Source: Gorillibacterium sp. sgz5001074 (lineage in GTDB: Bacteria; Bacillota; Bacilli; Paenibacillales; NBRC-103111). From it: 64,000 bases of DNA. The stretch spans positions 264,226-328,225 of the forward strand of contig NZ_JBPPGJ010000003.1 of NCBI RefSeq assembly GCF_051594765.1. The letters are read 5' to 3'. Positions within the stretch are counted from its first letter, which is position 1, and each line of letters begins with the position of its first letter. The position numbers and the translations under genes are program-made. The notes beneath the pieces were generated by a model. The model was not told the origin of the DNA and made no database searches. It worked only from the letters and a program-made list of their open reading frames with translations. Shown in pieces: positions 29,065 through 60,553 of this stretch.

Positions 29065-30429
29065 CTAGGCCGATACCGGGGTCGTTCTCTCCTTCTTCCT
29101 TCGATTGGAGTACAAAACGAACAGGAAGATGAACCACAGCGGCGTCAGCAGCAAGGCCGGGCGGGTCTCATCCGAGAACAGCATGACCACGAGAATGAAG
29201 CCGAAGAGCACCAGAACGACATAGTTGATAAAAGGGGTAAACGGCGCTTTAAAGGTGGATTTCGCCTGCAGCTGAGGCTGGGTCTTCTTATAGATCAGGT
29301 GGCTGATCAAGATGACGCCCCAAACCCATATGAAGCATATCGCGCTGATGGTGGTCACGATTCCGAAGGCCTGCTCCGGTATGAGCTTGCTGAGAAGCGC
29401 CCCGGCGGACAAGACAACGGTGGATACCAGCAACGAGTTGCCAGGGACATGATTCTGGTTCAGCTTCGCGAACTGGGCCGGGGCTTGCTCCTTCAAGCCC
29501 AAGGTATAGAGGATCCTGCTGGTGGAGAACATCCCGCTATTGCATGCGGATGCGGCGGAGGTCAGCACCACGAAGTTGATGATTCCCGCGGCGACCGGTA
29601 CCCCAACCAAGCTGAAGGTCTTCACAAAAGGGCTTTCTGCCGGTGTCAGCTGCGTCCAGGGGTTCACGCACAACAAGACGATCAGGGCACCGACATAGAA
29701 GAATAGAATCCGCATCGGGATTTTATTAATAGCGGAGGGGATATTTTGAGCCGGATTCGAGGTTTCCGCTGCGGACACCCCGACTAACTCCACGCCGACA
29801 TATGCGAACACGACCATCTGGAAGGAAAGCAGGAAGCCGGAGAACCCGTTCGGGAACAGCCCGCCATGGTCCCAGAGGTTCCGGACCGTAACCGGTCCCG
29901 CCGACGTCTTGTACCCGATTACCAGTAACACCACCCCAACTCCGATCAGAGCGAGAATGGTGACGACCTTCACTAGGGCAAACCAGAATTCCAGCTCTCC
30001 GAAGAGCTTGACCGTCAATAAATTCAGCCCCAACAGGATGATCAAGCACACCAGTGCCGGCACCCATTGCGGGATATCGAACCAATACTGCACATATAAG
30101 CCTACCGCAATTACATCGGCCATCGCCGTCATGATCCAGCAGAACCAATAGGTCCATCCCGTAACAAAGGCCGCCCGAGGCCCCAGATAATCCTCCGCAA
30201 TGTCCGTAAAGGATTGATAGCCGGCTTTGGACAGCAGCAGCTCACCCAAGGCCCTCATAACGAAAAACACTGCAATGCCCACGATAAGATAAGCCAGGAT
30301 GATGGATGGCCCCGCCTGTTGAATCGCCTTGCCTGACCCCAGGAACAGCCCCGTCCCTATGGTACCTCCTATGGCAATGAGCTGCACATGCCGATTGGCT
30401 AAATCCCTCTTCAATCCCGATTGTGTCAC
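29065..30429 (-). CDS. APC-family amino-acid permease, CycA-like (D-Ser/D-Ala/Gly type)
   Basis: GTG start with an AGGAG RBS. The N-terminus (LKRDLANRHVQLIAIGGTIGTGLF) closely parallels E. coli CycA. Confidence 0.8.
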   Translation of the reverse strand: MTQSGLKRDLANRHVQLIAIGGTIGTGLFLGSGKAIQQAGPSIILAYLIVGIAVFFVMRALGELLLSKAGYQSFTDIAEDYLGPRAAFVTGWTYWFCWIMTAMADVIAVGLYVQYWFDIPQWVPALVCLIILLGLNLLTVKLFGELEFWFALVKVVTILALIGVGVVLLVIGYKTSAGPVTVRNLWDHGGLFPNGFSGFLLSFQMVVFAYVGVELVGVSAAETSNPAQNIPSAINKIPMRILFFYVGALIVLLCVNPWTQLTPAESPFVKTFSLVGVPVAAGIINFVVLTSAASACNSGMFSTSRILYTLGLKEQAPAQFAKLNQNHVPGNSLLVSTVVLSAGALLSKLIPEQAFGIVTTISAICFIWVWGVILISHLIYKKTQPQLQAKSTFKAPFTPFINYVVLVLFGFILVVMLFSDETRPALLLTPLWFIFLFVLYSNRRKKERTTPVSA

Positions 30430-30439
30430 AATAAACTCC

Positions 30440-30640
30440 TCCTTAGGGGTTGGATTGCACAAAAAAAAGAGATTGGATGTCTCCAATCTCAAGTCATAAG
30501 AATAACGAATAATAGTTGCCGCCCAGACGGAATACGACTGTACGACAAATACCATTCCATACTCTTCTGTCCTTTTGCCTGAGATAGTGAACCCTTCGGC
30601 GCCGTGGAAGTCCCACGGTCTCTCCAGAAGCTGCTCCTGC
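30440..30640 (-). ncRNA. glycine riboswitch (single aptamer) with intrinsic terminator/attenuator
   Basis: The minus-strand leader contains CUGGAGAG..GCGCCGAAGGG..CUCAGGCAAAAGGACAG, the signature of a glycine aptamer. A GAGAUUGGAG/CUCCAAUCUC hairpin plus U8 sits just before the RBS. Confidence 0.55.
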
Positions 30641-30759
30641 TATAGTGTGATCCATAGCAATCATAGCTTGTGAAATATTCAGTTGTACCTAATTATAATC
30701 CTATAGGAGTGAACCTCCATGGTCATATCGTAATATTTTGTGACGGAATGTGGCCAGTA

Positions 30760-31443
30760 CTAAAGCATGTTGCTAATCTTTCTATTTCTTTCCAGCAGCT
30801 GCATACTGATCGTATCTATCAATTCAGCACTTTCAGCTTTTTCATTTTTCGTGACAAAGCCTTTGAGCAGTTGAATATTTTGGGCTATGACCTCCTCTAG
30901 TCCATACAGGGTTGGATGTGATTTCACCTGACTGCTTCTACATGTGTCATATAGTTTCTCGAGATTTTTCTTAAGCATGGCATCCGTTGTTTGTTCCATT
31001 AGCAGTCTCAACTCAGCGGAAGCATCCTTTATATAATTGGAATAGTACTTGCTTTCTTGTTCTTTATGAATTGCTTTTTCAGTAAAAATCAAGCTGGTCA
31101 TGTAAGCTAGGGCATATAGACCTGCGATTATCAATTGTGGTATGAACGAAGCGTTAAAAGATGCATTCTTAAAATAAATAAAAACAAGACCTATGAAGAA
31201 CGCACCAATAAAATATAAGAACGACAAATAAATAAGGGGATATCCGAACACCAAGGAACTTTTCACTTTAGGCATGGTTATCGTTGATAGAACAAACATG
31301 AGATAGGCAAAATGAATAAAACCGTAGGATACCCAAAACGCGGTAGTAAACTCCTTCATAATCAGAAAAATAACGGCATTGAAAACGATAACAAAAATTG
31401 AACTTAATAAAATCCAAAGAATGTTAATTTTTTTATTCATCAT
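30760..31443 (-). CDS. membrane protein, about 4 TM N-terminal plus C-terminal coiled-coil domain (low GC)
   Basis: Last gene of a low-GC (~35%) four-gene cluster. Start MMNKKINILW abuts the upstream gene. No family recognised. Confidence 0.55.
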   Translation of the reverse strand: MMNKKINILWILLSSIFVIVFNAVIFLIMKEFTTAFWVSYGFIHFAYLMFVLSTITMPKVKSSLVFGYPLIYLSFLYFIGAFFIGLVFIYFKNASFNASFIPQLIIAGLYALAYMTSLIFTEKAIHKEQESKYYSNYIKDASAELRLLMEQTTDAMLKKNLEKLYDTCRSSQVKSHPTLYGLEEVIAQNIQLLKGFVTKNEKAESAELIDTISMQLLERNRKISNML

Positions 31444-31451
31444 TAGCCGCC

Positions 31452-32609
31452 TCACATTCTTCTTGTTCCACATTCATTGCAGAACTTTGCCGTTTCGGGC
31501 ATTTCGGCTCCACAGTTTCCGCAGTATTTTTTTTCTTTAAGGAGTTTTGTGCCGCATTCATTGCAAAATTTGGCCCCCTGGACATTCTGAACCCCGCATG
31601 AAGGACACTCCGTTTGTTTAGCACCAGACTCTGCTTGTTCCGGTCGAGGCTGCTCGGGTTGGATCTGTTGATTCATCATGGGGGCAAACATTTGTGTTGC
31701 TACGTCCCCAAATATACCTCCCGCGGCTATTCCCATACCCAAGGCAGCTCCAGCTGCCGCGACTCCACCAGCCTCAGGATTATGTGCTAAATCCTTCAGA
31801 ATATCGACGGATTGTTGTCTACCCCAATCCTGTCCGAGCACACCCATAACAGCTTTATTGGCATATGCTTGTTCCAATCTTTCACGACTAGGGTCATTCT
31901 CGGGAATATCAATAGCACTGATATAAAAGTTAACCAGACGAACTCCATATTCGTCTAATATGCCATTCAATAGCGGCGTGAGAGATTCCGCTATCTTGGT
32001 CTTTTCCGTACAAACATCCAGAATTTCCCTTCCGGATTCCTTTATTACTCTAGGTATCTCATCCTTAATATATTGCATAAATGCATTGCGGAAGTACCCG
32101 TTAAGCTCCTCCTGGGTAAAATACTGAATATTATTGCCGATTAACTTAAGCAAAAACTTCTTGGAATCCGCAATCTGGATGGAGTACGAGCCTCTTGCTT
32201 GAATACTGGTTTGCAGCATGAATACAGGGTCTCTCATTTGAATCGGTGTATCTGTGCCCCAGAAGAGCTCTAGCTTATGTACTTTATTAATAAAATAAAC
32301 TTTACAGTTAAACGCACTAACTCCACCCGAAAAAGAGCTTATGAATTTACTGATAAAAGGGTAGTTATTCGTACCAAGGGTATACTTTCCGCCTTCGAAT
32401 GTTTGCTCGATTATGCCATCCTTAAAAAATAATGCTTCCTCTGATTCTGCAACAATAAGTTGGGAGCCCGTATTGAAGTCCTCACCAAGGAATTTCCAGG
32501 CGAGAACCTCACCTGGACCATCATTTTTTATAACACTGTATAATTGCACAGGTATACCTCCACTTTTTCCCAATATAGAATACAACAAAAAGAGCAGTTC
32601 ATGGGACAT
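31452..32609 (-). CDS. SPFH/Band-7-like protein with Gly-rich linker and double C-terminal zinc ribbon (COG4260, YdjI-like)
   Basis: N-terminal SPFH-like domain. C-terminus reads CPSCGVQN..CNECGTKL..CGNCGAEM..CNECGTRRM. An alternative GTG start near 32549 has the better RBS (GTGGAGGT). Confidence 0.65.
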   Translation of the reverse strand: MSHELLFLLYSILGKSGGIPVQLYSVIKNDGPGEVLAWKFLGEDFNTGSQLIVAESEEALFFKDGIIEQTFEGGKYTLGTNNYPFISKFISSFSGGVSAFNCKVYFINKVHKLELFWGTDTPIQMRDPVFMLQTSIQARGSYSIQIADSKKFLLKLIGNNIQYFTQEELNGYFRNAFMQYIKDEIPRVIKESGREILDVCTEKTKIAESLTPLLNGILDEYGVRLVNFYISAIDIPENDPSRERLEQAYANKAVMGVLGQDWGRQQSVDILKDLAHNPEAGGVAAAGAALGMGIAAGGIFGDVATQMFAPMMNQQIQPEQPRPEQAESGAKQTECPSCGVQNVQGAKFCNECGTKLLKEKKYCGNCGAEMPETAKFCNECGTRRM

Positions 32610-32663
32610 TCACTCGCCACAATGAATATTCTTTGAACTGCCCTTACTGCTATGTACTTTTAA

Positions 32664-33341
32664 CTAAGCACCTTTTTTCTCCCTAAGCAATTGCTTCATA
32701 CCTTGTATCGAGCGTTCAATCCCACCGATATCCGATACCGAACAAGAAATGGAGGTTCCGGCTACAGTCGTAAGCATGAAATGCTCAAGGTTAATGAATT
32801 CATCTTTTCCTTTCGTGTTTTTCATGGTTATTTTATCAGAGGAAGTGGATACAGCGACAACATCCTTATAGAAGTACTCATCTGTATTTTCATTTCTTTC
32901 ATTATCGACTAGTGAAAATCTATAGGTATAACAATATACTTGGCTTTCGCTAAAGAATAAAACGGCAACCTCGTAGTTAGAACTTCTAAACAGGCCATCC
33001 TTACCCTGTTTCCACAAGTACTCTCTAGCAATATTATCAAAGTATGGTCCATCAATAATAATGGGCTCAATTAATTGAACTTGCTCTTCGTCAATGCCAA
33101 TCTTGCTTAACCCATTCTTCACTGCATCATTAATTTCATTCTTGCAAATGGCATCTATTTCTGCATCAGTAGGCTTCCCTCTTACTTGAAAATAAATGTG
33201 GGCTATACCAGCAACTACTATTAATAACCCTGCTACTCTAAAGCCCACAAAAGTAAATAAACCAAAAAGAATTAAGATGATTCCTGGTTTTAATCTAGTT
33301 GTTTTAAAGTACCTTTTATTTCTTTTGTAATTCATTCCCAT
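32664..33341 (-). CDS. membrane-anchored protein (N-terminal TM hairpin), YdjH-like by position
   Basis: 225 aa with two hydrophobic helices at residues about 20-55 and a soluble C-terminal domain. Low GC. Confidence 0.5.
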   Translation of the reverse strand: MGMNYKRNKRYFKTTRLKPGIILILFGLFTFVGFRVAGLLIVVAGIAHIYFQVRGKPTDAEIDAICKNEINDAVKNGLSKIGIDEEQVQLIEPIIIDGPYFDNIAREYLWKQGKDGLFRSSNYEVAVLFFSESQVYCYTYRFSLVDNERNENTDEYFYKDVVAVSTSSDKITMKNTKGKDEFINLEHFMLTTVAGTSISCSVSDIGGIERSIQGMKQLLREKKGA

Positions 33342-33394
33342 TACCTCCGAGTTCGTTATATCCTATTATGGCAAAAACCGCGTGGCGGGCAGTT

Positions 33395-34036
33395 TTAGTT
33401 AACAATCAGATCAGCAGGTATCTCCACATTTAATAATTCGAATAAAATTCGAATATCCTCGTTCGTTACATGGTTCGTATATGCCGTACTAAGCTCATCC
33501 TTATAGCTTGGAGAAATTCGCAAGTACTTTCTTTCATAAAAGTCATACTTTAAATAGGCTGAGAAATAATTGTAGATGCCTCTATTCTCTATCATTAAAG
33601 CGGCATTTAAGTATTCCAACGCCTTATCAATCATAGCCTTAGGGGTCATAAAGGCCTTCTTGCCCTTTAATAAACCAACTGCTGCATAAAAATAGGTTTC
33701 GGAGTTATCGAAGTTATCCTGTATCGCCTTCTCAAAGCTTTCTACTGCCTTGTCATATAACTTTAATTTTAAATAACACATGCCCAAGGAGGATTGAATG
33801 GACGACTCCTCCGGGTGCTCCTTAAGAGCTTCATTATAGGATTGGACATACTTATTGGCATCCTGCTGCGACATATTATATACACTATTAAAACTCATAA
33901 TAATCACTTGTCTACCACAGTATTTACAAGTTTGTTCACTTGTTGAAGACGGTTCTCCACATCCAGGGCACCTTAGGTCAACAACTTTGTAAGCACACAT
34001 TAGGTAATCGATCCCCCACACCACATTTATAATCAC
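33395..34036 (-). CDS. zinc-ribbon (CPGCG..CKYCG) plus TPR-like repeat protein, YdjG-like by position
   Basis: Start is uncertain. A strong RBS (GAGGAGG) drives a 28-codon ORF in another frame (MEILVELSPSDYKCGVGDRLPNVCLQSC) that overlaps the start of this ORF. Confidence 0.5.
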   Translation of the reverse strand: MIINVVWGIDYLMCAYKVVDLRCPGCGEPSSTSEQTCKYCGRQVIIMSFNSVYNMSQQDANKYVQSYNEALKEHPEESSIQSSLGMCYLKLKLYDKAVESFEKAIQDNFDNSETYFYAAVGLLKGKKAFMTPKAMIDKALEYLNAALMIENRGIYNYFSAYLKYDFYERKYLRISPSYKDELSTAYTNHVTNEDIRILFELLNVEIPADLIVN

Positions 34037-34427
34037 TAGGGGATAATTCGACTAAAATTTCCATTTTCCTCCTCATAACGTTACATTTTTTACACTTTTT
34101 TAGTAATTGTAGTTGTAAAGACCTATATGACCCAGCAAGGGGATCATACGTAATGAATATTTCGAATCCGCCAAAAGCTCGAATCGTTTGGGAACCGGAA
34201 GCAATCGCTGCTTTCCCCGGCGCGGAGCGGCTCGTCACCTTTATCCCGGAGGAGCTGATCGAGACGGAGTTTGCCCCTACCCTATCGTGGAACTTCGCAA
34301 GCTATTCCCCGCACAACCCAGAGTAACCACTTAAAATGGACTTTACAGGTTATACAAAAGATGGTACTCTTCCCTTATAACCAGTAATACCGATTTAATC
34401 CGGTTATAATGTGGGAGGGTGATTGTG

Positions 34428-44911: not shown

Positions 44912-46651
44912 TTAAAGCAGCTTAATGATTTCTTCCAGCTCATCGACTAATACTTTCGCAAGTTCAAAGTTCTTATCCTTTAAAGCCGATTCTATTTTCA
45001 TTTCAACCGACTTTTTCTTTTGTTCCGTTTCTAAATAGTCTTTATTAAAATGACTCTCATAAATCATCTGTCTAAATTTTCGCATGCTCATTTTTCTAAT
45101 CGTCTTATCATCAATGATTAACACATAATCCATGCCGTTTACGACCGAATAGAAATCATGAGAAACCATCAGAATCGCACCTTTATAGTCTTCGATGGCT
45201 TTCTCCAGTGCGATCTGTGTATAGATGTCCAAATGGCTTGTCGGTTCGTCAAGAAGCAGTACGTTTGCTTTGCTGGCAGATACTTTGGCCAATTGAAGCA
45301 TGTTTTTTTCTCCACCAGACAAAGATTCGATCTTTTGATCCAGGATTTCTCCTTCAAAACCATAGTGTAGAAGATACGATCTGACCTCGTCATACGTTTT
45401 AAACCCAGCATCAATGAATTCGTCCATTATGGTATTGGAATCTTTTAGCGTCTCGCCTTGAAGCTGAGATAAATAAGCCATTTTAACATCAGCATTTATT
45501 TTGATCGACTCATGGTTGTTTTTGAAGATTTCGCGGAGCAAAGTCGTTTTCCCGGTACCGTTTGGACCGATAATGGCTACCTTATCCGTAGATTGGATCT
45601 CAAAGTTAACATGTTCTAGAAGCAGTTCATCGAAGGCAAGGCTATAATCATGGACATTTACGACAGTGGTGTCTTCTATTTCATGATCCAACCCAAAAGT
45701 AATATCCGGCTGCTTAATATTCACGAACGGCGCTTTGATTCTACGCGCTTCCAATCTTTCTTGAACCTTGACTCTGGCTTTTAACGCTCTGCCTCTGGAT
45801 GCTTCTGAATTATAAGTCGCGATTGCTCTAAGATGATCGATGATGTTCTCGTTTCGCTCGATTTCTTCTTCCTCAGCGATTGCGAGTTCTTGCAGCTCTA
45901 TTTTGGTCTGAAGCAAGGAGAAGTTATACTCGATATATCGCCCTTCGAACTCTTGGAGCTCCATGTTTTCAAGATGAATGATTTTGTTGAAGCAATGATT
46001 CAAAAGATATCGGTTATGCGTAACAACCAGCAGCATTCCCTTATGAGCATTTATCAATTTTTTAAGCGCATTTAGGTTTTCGAAGTCTAGGAACACATCC
46101 GGTTCATCCATAATCAACAAGTCCGGACTGTTAAGCATTTCCTTCATTACTTGGATAAGTTTGAATTCTCCGCCGCTCAGATCGGATACTTTAACATCCC
46201 TTAGCTTCATAAGGTTTGCCAGGTTTAGCTTCCGATTAATGCTGCTTTCAAAATCGTCCCCGCCTATTGAATCGAATGCATCCAAAGCGAACTGAAGCTT
46301 TTCCAACACCGAATCCATGTCCGATGTGGTTTCCATTTCAGCATAAATCGAAGTGATTTCATCTTGTATTTTGATAAATGCTTCCCCAATATATTCAAAA
46401 ACGGTTGTTTCTTTGGGCTTGTCTACTTGCGAGAACTGACTGACATACCCGATTTTGCAAGTCGGGTCTATCTCTAGCTTGCCCTCGAACAAATACCTTT
46501 CCGGATCTATCAGTATATCGATCAGTGTACTTTTTCCGCTGCCATTTGTTCCGATAAAAGCGCAATGTTGCCCCTCTTCAAGCGTAAACGAAATGTCCTT
46601 ATATAGTTCTTTTTGCGGAAACGAGAAGGATAGGTTTTCAACCTTTATCAT
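44912..46651 (-). CDS. ABC-F family ATPase (two NBDs with about 85-aa interdomain linker and C-terminal extension); possible ARE-type ribosomal-protection protein
   Basis: Two Walker A motifs (GTNGSGKST, GPNGTGKTT), two ABC signatures (LSGGEF, LSGGEK) and no TM segments. Low GC. Confidence 0.75.
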   Translation of the reverse strand: MIKVENLSFSFPQKELYKDISFTLEEGQHCAFIGTNGSGKSTLIDILIDPERYLFEGKLEIDPTCKIGYVSQFSQVDKPKETTVFEYIGEAFIKIQDEITSIYAEMETTSDMDSVLEKLQFALDAFDSIGGDDFESSINRKLNLANLMKLRDVKVSDLSGGEFKLIQVMKEMLNSPDLLIMDEPDVFLDFENLNALKKLINAHKGMLLVVTHNRYLLNHCFNKIIHLENMELQEFEGRYIEYNFSLLQTKIELQELAIAEEEEIERNENIIDHLRAIATYNSEASRGRALKARVKVQERLEARRIKAPFVNIKQPDITFGLDHEIEDTTVVNVHDYSLAFDELLLEHVNFEIQSTDKVAIIGPNGTGKTTLLREIFKNNHESIKINADVKMAYLSQLQGETLKDSNTIMDEFIDAGFKTYDEVRSYLLHYGFEGEILDQKIESLSGGEKNMLQLAKVSASKANVLLLDEPTSHLDIYTQIALEKAIEDYKGAILMVSHDFYSVVNGMDYVLIIDDKTIRKMSMRKFRQMIYESHFNKDYLETEQKKKSVEMKIESALKDKNFELAKVLVDELEEIIKLL

Positions 46652-58213: not shown

Positions 58214-59002
58214 CTAAATTTTCCCATTATATATTTTAACTGTAATTGGAGCGACAATCAGAACAAGGAGTATGCCGATAAAGATGGTCATTGATGCGCT
58301 TGAAGTGAACTCTCCATGATTGGCTAAATCTTTAAAAGCCGTGACCAAATAAGTAATAGGATTATGTTCAGCTACGCTCCGCAAAAAATGGGGCAACGTA
58401 TCAATAGGCACGAAGGCGTTGGATAGGAACGACATCATCATGGTGACCATTGTCGAAATACTAGAGATCGTTGCTGCGGATTTGGATACCAGACCAATCA
58501 ATGCAAACACCCAACTGATGGCGCATGCGCCGAATATGGCCAAAAGCGAAGCGACGATCAACCACCCAAACCCGGCTTCCGGACGCCATCCAAGAATGTA
58601 GCCCGTACCGATCGAGAAAAAAGCCGCCGCGACATATCGTAAAATATCTGATGTCACTAAACCAGCCAGTGGAGCAATCCGGACAATGGGTAATGATTTA
58701 AACCGATCAAAAACGCCAGTATCCAAATCCTCCCGTAACTGCGTGCCCGTTGCCGCTGACGACATGACCAGTGTTTGAATGAGAATTCCCGGCACGATGA
58801 TTGGCAAGTATCCTTGTACACCTCCAGCAATCGCACCTCCGAATAGATATGAAAAGACGATCATGAAGAAAATAGGGATTACGGTTACATCGATCAATTT
58901 ATCGGGATTATGTTTGATTTTCAGGATATTTCTTTTTGCCATTACAACAATATCATACAGAGCGCTCTTTAAGTTGTTTTGTTTGCTTATCACAGATTCC
59001 AT
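58214..59002 (-). CDS. ABC-2 type transporter permease (DrrB-like)
   Basis: 262 aa, 6 TM. Confidence 0.7.
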   Translation of the reverse strand: MESVISKQNNLKSALYDIVVMAKRNILKIKHNPDKLIDVTVIPIFFMIVFSYLFGGAIAGGVQGYLPIIVPGILIQTLVMSSAATGTQLREDLDTGVFDRFKSLPIVRIAPLAGLVTSDILRYVAAAFFSIGTGYILGWRPEAGFGWLIVASLLAIFGACAISWVFALIGLVSKSAATISSISTMVTMMMSFLSNAFVPIDTLPHFLRSVAEHNPITYLVTAFKDLANHGEFTSSASMTIFIGILLVLIVAPITVKIYNGKI

Positions 59003-59017
59003 GTTTATCTCCCCTAA

Positions 59018-59947
59018 TTATTTAGTTAGTTCCAAAAACACCTCATCAAGCGTTGGTTTTCTAACTGAAAACTCTTTGATTTCTATATCATGCTGAGTTA
59101 AATCTACTAGTAATCTGGTCATCACTTTCGTGTCTGCCAGCTTAACGGTCAATTTGGTTCCTTCGGGTGAAATCATGGCCTCCTGAGCGATTTCCGCCTT
59201 GATTAGTCCTTTGGCTCTTTCGGCATCCCTCATATGCTCCAGAGTAATTTCAAAATGGGTATCGCTTAACAAAGACTTCAATTCATTCGGCGTTCCCTGA
59301 GAAATGATTCTTCCATGATTAATTATCGCTAGTCGATCTGCTAGTTGATCCGCTTCCTCCAAATACTGAGTTGTCAGCAAGATCGTTGCCCCGTCGCTTG
59401 CCAAGTTGCGGATCACTTCCCACATCTCTCCTCGTGTGCGTGGATCTAAGCCCGTTGTCGGTTCATCAAGAAAAATGAGTGGGGGCTTCACGATTAAACT
59501 CACCGATAAATCCAATCGTCTACGCATCCCGCCCGAAAATTCACGAATCGGTCGATCCTTTGCCTCGGTTAATGAAAACTGATTGAGAAGTTCAAGAGCC
59601 CTCGCTTTGGATTGACTCGCTGATAAACCATTCAATTGCCCAAAGAGCTTCAAGTTTTCCATCGCGGTCAATTCCTCATCAACGGTTGCATATTGGCCCG
59701 TCAAGCCAATCAAGCTTCGAACCTTTCGAGCGTCTTTGGTGACGTCTTTGCCAAAAATCATGGCTTTGCCTTTTGACACTTTAGTAATCGTTGCAAGCAT
59801 TCGCAAGAAAGTTGTCTTTCCTGCACCATTCGGACCCAGAATACCGAAAATCTCTCCTTTCTTAATATCCAAAGAAATACCATCGACTGCTCGCTTGTTA
59901 GGAAATTCTTTAACGAGCTCTTTAGTTGAAACGGCTAGCTCTGTCAT
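59018..59947 (-). CDS. ABC transporter ATP-binding protein (DrrA-like)
   Basis: Walker A (GPNGAGKTT) and signature (FSGGMRRRL). Start at MTELAVS. Confidence 0.8.
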   Translation of the reverse strand: MTELAVSTKELVKEFPNKRAVDGISLDIKKGEIFGILGPNGAGKTTFLRMLATITKVSKGKAMIFGKDVTKDARKVRSLIGLTGQYATVDEELTAMENLKLFGQLNGLSASQSKARALELLNQFSLTEAKDRPIREFSGGMRRRLDLSVSLIVKPPLIFLDEPTTGLDPRTRGEMWEVIRNLASDGATILLTTQYLEEADQLADRLAIINHGRIISQGTPNELKSLLSDTHFEITLEHMRDAERAKGLIKAEIAQEAMISPEGTKLTVKLADTKVMTRLLVDLTQHDIEIKEFSVRKPTLDEVFLELTK

Positions 59948-59971
59948 TCTGTTTTCTCCTTTGCGCATTTA

Positions 59972-60012
59972 ATAAGGATACCTTACTAATAAAATAAGGT
60001 ACCCTTACTAAA
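59972..60012. promoter_or_regulatory. two direct copies of a palindromic box (TAAGGATACCTTACTA / TAAGGTACCCTTACTA); putative MarR operator
   Basis: Each copy contains TAAGG..CCTTA inverted half-sites. Located 25 nt upstream of the ABC ATPase start and 80 nt upstream of marR. Confidence 0.5.
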
Positions 60013-60091
60013 ATGTCAACCACATAATTTGAATTACTTCGGTGACCTGATAAAATAGAGAGGTACGGAGAACAAATAAGGGGAAATTATT

Positions 60092-60553
60092 GTGGATGAA
60101 AAACAATTAAACGTCGATATAACGACTAACTTCATGAAATATAATGATTTACTTACGGCGTTCTTAAAAGAAAACATACTTAAAGGCAGCAGCGTGTTTA
60201 CCTCTCTAAATCGAGGGCAAGGGAAAATATTGAGCATCCTTCATCAGACACCAAGTATTTCCCAAAAGGAATTAGTCAATCAATTGGATATGCGCCCGCA
60301 ATCTGCTTCTGAAATGATTAAAAAGCTAGAAAAAAAGGGATTCATCGAGCGGTATAAATCTGAAGAGGATCAACGCGTGATGATGATTACGCTAACTAAA
60401 GCCGGCAAAGTCGTTTTAAATCAAGCCGGAGACTTTCAGCCTGTATTTTTAAATGTTCTAACGATGGATGAAAAACAACAATTTAATCGAATACTCGAAA
60501 AACTTGTAGCCGAAATTGAACCCGAAGTCGCCAAATCTCGAAACAAGCAATAG
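60092..60553 (+). CDS. MarR family transcriptional regulator (low GC)
   Basis: Winged HTH (SISQKELVNQLDMRPQSASEMIKKLEKKGFI). Confidence 0.8.
   Translation: MDEKQLNVDITTNFMKYNDLLTAFLKENILKGSSVFTSLNRGQGKILSILHQTPSISQKELVNQLDMRPQSASEMIKKLEKKGFIERYKSEEDQRVMMITLTKAGKVVLNQAGDFQPVFLNVLTMDEKQQFNRILEKLVAEIEPEVAKSRNKQ

Follow-up and report, generated by a model that had tools for sequence, protein, structure and literature searches.

A low-GC four-gene SPFH cassette in Gorillibacterium and its relatives with ATPase and toxin-like genes

Introduction

SPFH proteins in general oligomerize into a cap that covers a patch of membrane containing their clients. Several SPFH genes are paired with a gene for an NfeD protein, as in QmcA/YbbJ, YqiK/YqiJ and FloT/YuaF. 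Here we describe a cassette of four genes, one of them an SPFH gene, within a 64-kb stretch of the genome of Gorillibacterium sp. sgz5001074; the whole stretch is referred to as the window, and the genes are named g1 to g4 in the order in which they are read. Our tentative reading, at slightly less than even confidence, is that this locus would be an acquired operon for the four-protein 'frame' of a widespread, undescribed membrane system, present in the window in a motor-less and cargo-less form. Searches of the open-access literature turned up no account of such a gene system.

Of the NfeD-pair proteins, YqiJ and YuaF have been described as NfeD-type partners (PMC11237479). A second described arrangement is the pspA-ydjGHI operon of Bacillus subtilis, in which YdjI is a soluble protein consisting of a band-7 domain and a C-terminal Zn ribbon (PMC11237479; PMC8581546). 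YdjG combines two Zn ribbons with a YpeB-like NTF2 domain and a transmembrane (TM) segment, and YdjH is a membrane-associated protein with a TPM domain and a low-complexity or coiled-coil region (PMC11237479). YdjG and YdjH recruit the TM-less YdjI to the membrane, which provides a precedent for tethering by operon partners (PMC8581546).

Comparison with described SPFH operons

The cassette (30760-34000) consists of four co-directional genes on the minus strand, with intergenic gaps of 59 nt (g1-g2), 114 nt (g2-g3) and 11 nt (g3-g4), and the products of g4, g3 and g2 were 100% identical to NCBI proteins of Gorillibacterium sp. sgz5001074. An initial annotation had described it as a tight co-directional operon encoding a zinc-ribbon and TPR protein, a TM-hairpin protein, a Band-7/SPFH protein of 385 aa with a Gly-rich linker and four CxxC pairs, and a four-TM protein with a long C-terminal coiled coil, three of the genes resembling ydjGHI. 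All four open reading frames (ORFs) were recovered in this arrangement, and the descriptions of the first three products were borne out, g3 being 365 aa long. For g4 the four TM segments stood, and the coiled coil was replaced by a four-helix bundle in the AlphaFold2 model. The likeness to ydjGHI was upheld for the SPFH protein, which has the YdjI architecture, and lost for g1, which has neither an NTF2 domain nor a TM segment, and for g2, which has no TPM domain.

The match of g3 to Band_7_1 (PF13421) was well above the cut-off (3.6e-35; 121.9 bits against a cut-off of 24) and covered profile positions 8-198 of 211. The four CxxC pairs were recognized as Zn ribbons by Zn_Ribbon_1 (two matches, 7e-14) and DZR (2.5e-10). 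No TM segment was predicted in g3, its sole hydrophobic stretch being the Gly/Ala linker at residues 262-281. The GTG start at 32549, which has GGAGG 7 nt upstream and yields a protein 100% identical to NCBI P0037, was favoured because the in-frame ATG at 32609 sits within the hairpin of the g2-g3 spacer. There were more than 1800 g3 homologues among the matches listed, and a search of solved structures with g3 returned a chance Zn-ribbon match only. Across the family the C-terminal tail of the SPFH protein varies, carrying one to three Zn ribbons, SHOCT-like or GYF-like modules, or a TIR domain. The TIR arrangement was seen in P0055 (L006, 5920-7863), where an SPFH domain 66% identical to that of g3 is followed by one Zn ribbon, a beta-rich region and a C-terminal TIR_2 domain; it lies beside two serine recombinases and RyR-domain genes, in a neighbourhood that lacks g4.

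Comparison with pspA-ydjGHI was made on published domain architectures. Like YdjI, g3 is a TM-less Band_7_1 protein with a low-complexity linker and a Zn-ribbon region at its C terminus, and it is encoded beside small membrane proteins and a Zn-ribbon protein that would, by analogy, be its recruiters. The partners themselves are unlike those of YdjI: g1 is soluble, with one Zn ribbon and TPR repeats, and has only the N-terminal Zn ribbon in common with YdjG; g2 has two TM segments and a PH-like domain, unlike the TPM-domain protein YdjH; and g4 has no counterpart in the ydj operon. No match to TPM_phosphatase was obtained at E<=1 for g2 or any of 45 family members. The cassette also differs from the ydj operon in being mobile, in having no sigma-W-type promoter that could be found, and in often enclosing ATPase and toxin genes in relatives.

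For g1, both TPR_1 (3e-8) and TPR_2 (4.8e-8) scored above the Pfam cut-offs, and the N-terminal Zn ribbon (CxxC...CxxC) was matched by Zn_ribbon_3 below cut-off (4e-4). No TM segment was predicted. An alternative GTG start at 34036 would give a protein of 213 aa, and homologues begin at the equivalent Met (MSTYKIVDLKCPGCG). All forms of the system contain both g1 and g2, save for a Planctomycetales metagenome-assembled genome (MAG) without g2.

The TM hairpin of g2 corresponds to AlphaFold2 helices 16-29 and 33-51, and the fold of the protein was predicted to be PH-like. No Pfam model was found for g2, the scan of all members of the g2 alignment gave no recurrent family, and the bacterial PH Pfam families had no listed match for any g2 family member. 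Compared with bacterial PH (bPH) proteins (YdbS/YdbT, PDB 3b77), g2 has an extra helical linker and motifs of its own, namely TDEYFYKD and an R/KEKK tail. From the positive-inside rule we infer that the soluble domains of g2 and g4 face the cytoplasm.

The spacer between g2 and g3 holds a strong hairpin followed by a U-run. RNA folding of 32545-32668 on the minus strand gave -42 kcal/mol (z = -4.75 relative to shuffles), and hairpin plus T-run elements also lie 3' of g2 in two other loci (L072 and L082). The spacer hairpin presumably acts as a terminator or attenuator. Together with the existence of g1-g2-only and g3-g4-only loci, it suggests that g1g2 and g3g4 are two sub-modules with attenuated read-through between them.

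Linkage of g4 to the SPFH gene

The AlphaFold2 model of g4 (pLDDT 89) was all-helical, with four TM helices and a four-helix bundle. No Pfam family was found for g4, including in scans of all members of the g4 alignment, and structure comparison gave no specific relative: Foldseek returned nothing, and the only similarities were to generic helical bundles, among which designed helical proteins scored equally. Several polar residues within the TM helices are invariant or nearly so (N21, S38, H43, Q102 and N120), as are the motifs SSxVKS and ERN. The family is large, with 3393 cluster representatives at 50% identity in a profile search; the 36 matches of the first, word-seeded search are thus a sign of fast divergence rather than of rarity. 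One 662-aa protein (P0348) is a fusion of a Zn ribbon, Ser/Thr protein kinase motifs (read by eye) and a complete g4 module at residues 438-660, a composition which suggests that signalling proteins can use the 4TM and helical-bundle unit as their membrane part.

Scanning metagenomes for the pattern of the g4 alignment gave 80 loci, 62 of which had any room upstream of g4. An SPFH gene lay directly before g4 on the same strand in 59 of these 62 evaluable loci. The three exceptions were an insertion sequence (IS) insertion, a small inserted gene, and a locus with a second g4-like match upstream (L019). g4 is therefore a near-obligate downstream partner of the SPFH gene, which contradicts the proposal of the initial annotation that it is an extra gene standing in for PspA.

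This coupling of an SPFH gene to the gene of a small multi-TM protein with a cytoplasmic C-terminal domain, adjacent across phyla, is also what characterizes SPFH-NfeD pairs. Unlike in those pairs, g3 has no membrane anchor of its own, and the soluble domain of g4 is an all-alpha four-helix bundle rather than an OB-fold. No NfeD Pfam match was found for g4 or 35 family members.

Beyond the four-gene order, the g3-g4 pair was found in contigs of Treponema, Lachnospiraceae and Prevotella with other Zn-ribbon proteins nearby. A contig of Bacteroides finegoldii (L096) has the order HTH (helix-turn-helix), g2, YidD, SPFH, 4TM and helical protein, g1, so that g1, g2 and g3 remain linked despite the permutation; its SPFH protein ends in a GYF-like module that replaces the Zn ribbons. 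In this contig and in two metagenome loci (L028 and L058) a YidD-like membrane-insertion factor stands between g2 and the SPFH gene, constituting a third form of the system, and in the latter two a small Zn-ribbon-TM-Zn-ribbon protein is encoded there as well. The B. finegoldii contig was the one match in a plasmid collection; given its housekeeping genes rny, obgE and adk, this 'plasmid' was treated as chromosomal context and not as a case of plasmid carriage.

Long forms with an ATPase and toxin-like cargo

In many relatives the frame encloses additional genes. The order of this long form is g1-g2-ATPase-cargo/immunity-g3-g4, with g1 and g2 preceding the ATPase wherever contigs extend far enough, and the same ATPase was present upstream of g3 in 25 loci. 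Modestobacter lapidis, for example, has an 886-900-aa DUF87 protein and a 300-aa acidic protein between g2 and g3, and the Planctomycetales MAG has g1-ATPase-cargo-g3-g4. Metagenome loci with 2.5 kb or more of sequence upstream of g3 numbered 28: 21 were of the long form with the ATPase present, 2 were of the short form, 2 had the order g2-YidD-small Zn-ribbon protein-g3, and 3 were disrupted. Truncated ATPase remnants or IS insertions were found in L039, L018 and L033. By eye, transposase-like ORFs replace g3 in L039 (435-2144) and lie upstream of g3 in L033 (2366-3976, minus strand), and L062 (331-988, minus strand) has a RelE/ParE-like toxin-antitoxin pair upstream of its g3.

The ATPase is a soluble, TM-less protein of about 890 aa with a single HerA-type module, matched by DUF87 (6e-11), CedD (5e-23), HerA and mad8, the HerA-clade models all scoring below cut-off. 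The cargo is variable and extremely acidic (20-34% Asp+Glu), ending in GH-E, WHH/Colicin-DNase, HD or HExxH domains, and about a third of the cargo-segment proteins have the N-terminal motif GGDLxxxxG(V/I)DL in common. The small genes that follow the cargo include immunity genes, as in the pairing of GH-E (1e-23) with Imm33 (1e-17) and of GH-E with SUFU (1.6e-27). Directly 3' of the ATPase lies a conserved pair, an acidic HExxH protein of about 220 aa with weak DUF6782/SprT-like matches and a family-less protein of 98-99 aa (L089, 2903-3876, and 13 other long-form loci); possible roles for the two are those of a fixed toxin/immunity pair or of a processing peptidase and its inhibitor. The segment from the ATPase to g3 bears the hallmarks of a polymorphic toxin system in the sense of an earlier definition (PMC3482391). 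A variable toxin domain with a cognate immunity gene thus occurs in relatives that have the same frame and not in the window, where no ATPase homologue, acidic or toxin-like ORF or N-terminal cargo motif was found in the 64 kb. This framing by ATPase, toxin and immunity genes goes beyond the initial annotation and was not knowable from the sequence alone.

The long-form relatives resemble type VIIb secretion loci in having signal-peptide-less polymorphic nuclease toxins and immunity genes beside an FtsK-HerA superfamily ATPase and small membrane proteins (PMC3482391). They are unlike them in that the ATPase is a single-module, TM-less protein rather than the multi-module, membrane-anchored EssC, and in that the toxins have poly-acidic N-terminal regions rather than LXG. 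No matches to WXG100, LXG, EssB or EsaA were found in the scanned cargo and neighbour proteins of the long forms, and in the window the cassette and the genes on either side of it likewise yielded no component of the type VII secretion system (T7SS), neither an EssC/EccC ATPase nor WXG100/LXG substrates. Two further likenesses are a PH-like protein in the neighbourhood (EsaC in the T7SS) and the SPFH scaffold, which aids assembly in S. aureus; there the T7SS reportedly depends on the flotillin FloA.

Short and long forms proved to be closely related. Over the first 290 aa, the SPFH protein of the window (short) was 78% identical to that of a long form (L015) and 71-74% identical to those of three short forms (L012, L009 and L002), and two other short/long pairs reached 94% (L072 and L037) and 87% (L027 and L022). 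In a neighbour-joining tree, which carries no support values, short and long forms were interleaved. This interleaving and the high identity between forms indicate that the ATPase-toxin segment has been gained or lost often and recently within a conserved frame. Short forms have arisen repeatedly and persist.

Horizontal acquisition and selection

The G+C content of the cassette was 38.8%, compared with 50.1% for the rest of the window, and the cassette was the lowest-GC 3.2-kb segment in the 64 kb scanned (z = -3.5). G+C content at third codon positions was 0.34-0.41 in the cassette genes and 0.54-0.71 in flanking genes. The initial annotation had already noted this contrast, slightly exaggerated at 35-38% against 55%, and had taken it as a mark of horizontal acquisition, which the comparison with other genomes corroborated.

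The same four genes in the same order were found in Paenibacillus allorhizosphaerae, a Clostridiaceae MAG, Gorillibacterium CAU 1737 and Lederbergia citrea. In Bacillus timonensis the four-gene cassette is inserted between fliT and hpf/secA, and two additional contigs have the four-gene order, one of them just after the walRK-rlmH region. The neighbours differ at every cassette copy across Bacillaceae, Paenibacillaceae and Clostridia, and in three Gorillibacterium species the cassette genes occupy different loci, with G. massiliense having g1-g2 only. Directly upstream of the cassette in Gorillibacterium CAU 1737 (L012, 3491-6324) lie genes for an HSP90-like HATPase protein (591 aa) and a 353-aa family-less protein.

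Cassette G+C content is far below that of the host in Gorillibacterium sgz5001074 and in Paenibacillus allorhizosphaerae and 8 points below in Gorillibacterium CAU 1737, so that it stays under the host value in the nearest relatives as well; it is near the host value in low-GC Bacillus and Clostridia. This distribution would fit transfer from low-GC Firmicutes. Judged by composition and placement, the cassette is a conserved, mobile, horizontally acquired module.

Between the window and the Paenibacillus copy, nonsynonymous differences (pN) were 0.10-0.21 and synonymous differences (pS) 0.75-0.80 for all four genes, giving pN/pS of about 0.13-0.28 with synonymous sites saturated. Low pN relative to saturated pS indicates that all four genes are under purifying selection.

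Borders of the island and flanking regions

The features of the cassette and its borders are listed in Table 1. On the left, homology with other cassettes stops at the g4 stop codon and the island is limited by a glycine riboswitch; a terminator-like hairpin at 30469-30490 is probably the expression platform of this riboswitch. On the right, the mini-ORF ahead of g1 may encode a leader peptide, and a AGGAGGAAnnTG...GAATT-like stretch is also present upstream of g1 in L001 and L095.

Table 1. Positions in the window of the cassette genes and of the elements that border them
Feature	Coordinates	Strand	Size	Basis or remark
g1, soluble Zn-ribbon and TPR protein	33395..34000	-	201 aa	ORF; TPR_1 match
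g2, N-terminal 2-TM hairpin, helical linker, cytoplasmic PH-like beta-sandwich (predicted) and C-terminal helix	32664..33335	-	223 aa	
Strong hairpin then U-run in the g2-g3 spacer, terminator- or attenuator-like	32579..32645	-		RNA fold
g3, soluble SPFH protein (Band_7_1/YdjI type), Gly/Ala-rich linker, two C-terminal Zn ribbons	31452..32549	-	365 aa	
g4, 4-TM protein with TM4 extending into a four-helix bundle, predicted to be cytoplasmic	30760..31440	-	226 aa	ORF; 100% identical to P0001
Left island edge, spacer from the g4 stop codon to the permease glycine riboswitch	30638..30759	-		Homology with other cassettes stops at the g4 stop codon
Glycine riboswitch RF00504	30557-30637	-		51.9 bits; precedes the amino-acid permease gene; limits the island on the left
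Amino-acid permease gene, riboswitch neighbour	29065-30420	-		
Right island edge, AT-rich region upstream of g1	33978..34150	-		Before a metallo-beta-lactamase-fold gene
Mini-ORF (MEILVELSP...)	33978-34064	-	28 codons	AGGAGG in front; overlaps the g1 start

The flanking genes are ordinary and include ABC permeases, a zf-CGNR protein, TetR, AraC, SDR and MerR. No mobility genes, integrase or defence genes were found around the cassette, no direct or inverted repeats were found flanking the island, and the non-coding flanks showed no conservation between cassettes. Scans of the cassette for consensus promoters and terminators performed no better than shuffles.

Two further low-GC patches (about 0.39-0.41) occur in the window, at 44912-46651 (minus strand) and 58214-60553. 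One holds an ORF of 579 aa that lacks a TM segment, has two sets of ABC-type ATPase motifs and looks ABC-F-like by eye; the other holds an apparent ABC-2-type transporter pair and a MarR-like regulator. Both are possibly acquired resistance modules.

Proposed function and alternative explanations

If the four genes encode a frame, g4 and probably g2 would hold a ring or cage of SPFH protein against the membrane's inner face, as YdjG and YdjH do for YdjI, and g3 would, by analogy with other SPFH proteins, cap a membrane patch containing its client. Because of the conserved polar residues in its TM helices, g4 is a candidate for this client, as a conduit or gated element, rather than a mere anchor. 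The TPR repeats of g1 would make it an adaptor. In the long forms, the platform and the HerA-type motor would export or release the acidic toxins, whose targets would be other cells and not the producer, since immunity genes accompany them. The window copy would then carry out the basal job of the platform, organising or protecting a membrane domain, or would have its partners encoded outside the 64 kb.

Several observations weigh against this interpretation. With no ATPase, toxin-like or acidic ORF in the window, the link to export comes entirely from relatives. The cargo proteins carry no signal peptide, and both their export and the channel are what we infer; structural comparison of g4, for its part, gave no relative suggestive of a pore or transporter. 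That short forms in at least eight genomes are under purifying selection implies that they have a role independent of motor and cargo. The SPFH-TIR and g4-Ser/Thr kinase fusions hint at roles in signalling or conflict rather than transport. Finally, the terminator-like hairpin that parts g1-g2 from g3-g4 may denote two modules rather than one complex, and the g1-g2-only locus of G. massiliense may hint at the same.

A bolder proposal, which we consider doubtful, is that the four genes form the membrane apparatus of a new, T7SS-independent export route. A soluble HerA-type motor, akin to DNA translocases, would thread the poly-acidic, DNA-like N-terminal tails of the toxins through a conduit made of g4 and g2, with the g3 cage as its cap and gate and g1 as the substrate adaptor. 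The window would then be an apparatus-only locus, with unlinked cargo or a second function.

An envelope-stress module of the PspA type, in which an SPFH protein and its anchors sense or repair membrane damage, either alone or with a PspA or LiaH protein encoded elsewhere, appears unlikely. It would account for the exact YdjI architecture of g3, which is TM-less and has membrane-protein neighbours (PMC8581546, PMC11237479), for the selection that maintains short forms without toxin genes, and for flanks made up of ordinary housekeeping and metabolic genes. The absence of pspA, noted in the initial annotation, is at odds with it: a phmmer search with E. coli PspA as a single-sequence query (E<=1) against six-frame ORFs of the 64-kb window and of 96 related loci with 7-10 kb flanks returned nothing, and PspA_IM30 was absent from the precomputed Pfam lists of the relatives' loci. 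The stress module is also hard to reconcile with g1 and g2, which depart from the NTF2 and TM architecture of YdjG and the TPM architecture of YdjH, or with the missing sigma-W-type promoter, and it leaves unexplained why the frame so frequently encloses ATPase and toxin/immunity cassettes.

Less likely again is a role in anti-phage defence by abortive infection, where the SPFH protein would restrain a membrane effector (g4, possibly g2) that is freed on infection to depolarise the cell. Such a role would suit the mobility of the cassette and the SPFH-TIR fusion. None of the four proteins had a PADLOC model match, however: there was no match for g2 or g3 in PADLOC-DB 2.0, matches for g1 and g4 were at chance level (E at least 0.012), and PADLOC, PHROGs and NCBIfam scans of g1-g4 gave nothing specific. 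The cassette neighbours are not defence islands, no g4 relatives were found on viral contigs, and the similarity of the g4 bundle to known structures is generic, designed helical proteins scoring equally. The Imm33 and SUFU immunity genes that accompany the cargo fit interbacterial toxins and not self-killing effectors.

That the locus is a decaying, functionless remnant of a long-form toxin system after loss of the ATPase and toxin is very improbable, for although close relatives hold the extra segment (78% SPFH identity to L015), G. massiliense keeps g1-g2 only and IS insertions and truncated ATPase remnants occur in three loci, eight or more independent genomes or contigs have all four ORFs intact, short forms have repeatedly arisen and persisted, and pN/pS is low with synonymous sites saturated.

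Conclusions

The locus is a variation on the theme of the SPFH-scaffold operon in which two of the partners belong to unnamed families. Among SPFH proteins the Band_7_1/YdjI branch is very large, and B. subtilis YdjI, in its PspA context, is its sole studied member; the present locus provides a second, PspA-free context, in which the partner is a near-obligate 4TM protein. It also defines two families without a Pfam model, g4, with about 3400 clusters at 50% identity, and g2, with its combination of two TM segments and a PH-like domain (2TM-PH).

The relatives probably reveal a new polymorphic-toxin machine. Should the frame indeed supply the membrane component for toxin delivery, this would be a new antagonism system in several phyla and would give a bacterial SPFH cage a concrete biochemical role. 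With near-identical short and long forms available, what the frame does can be told apart from what the motor and cargo do.

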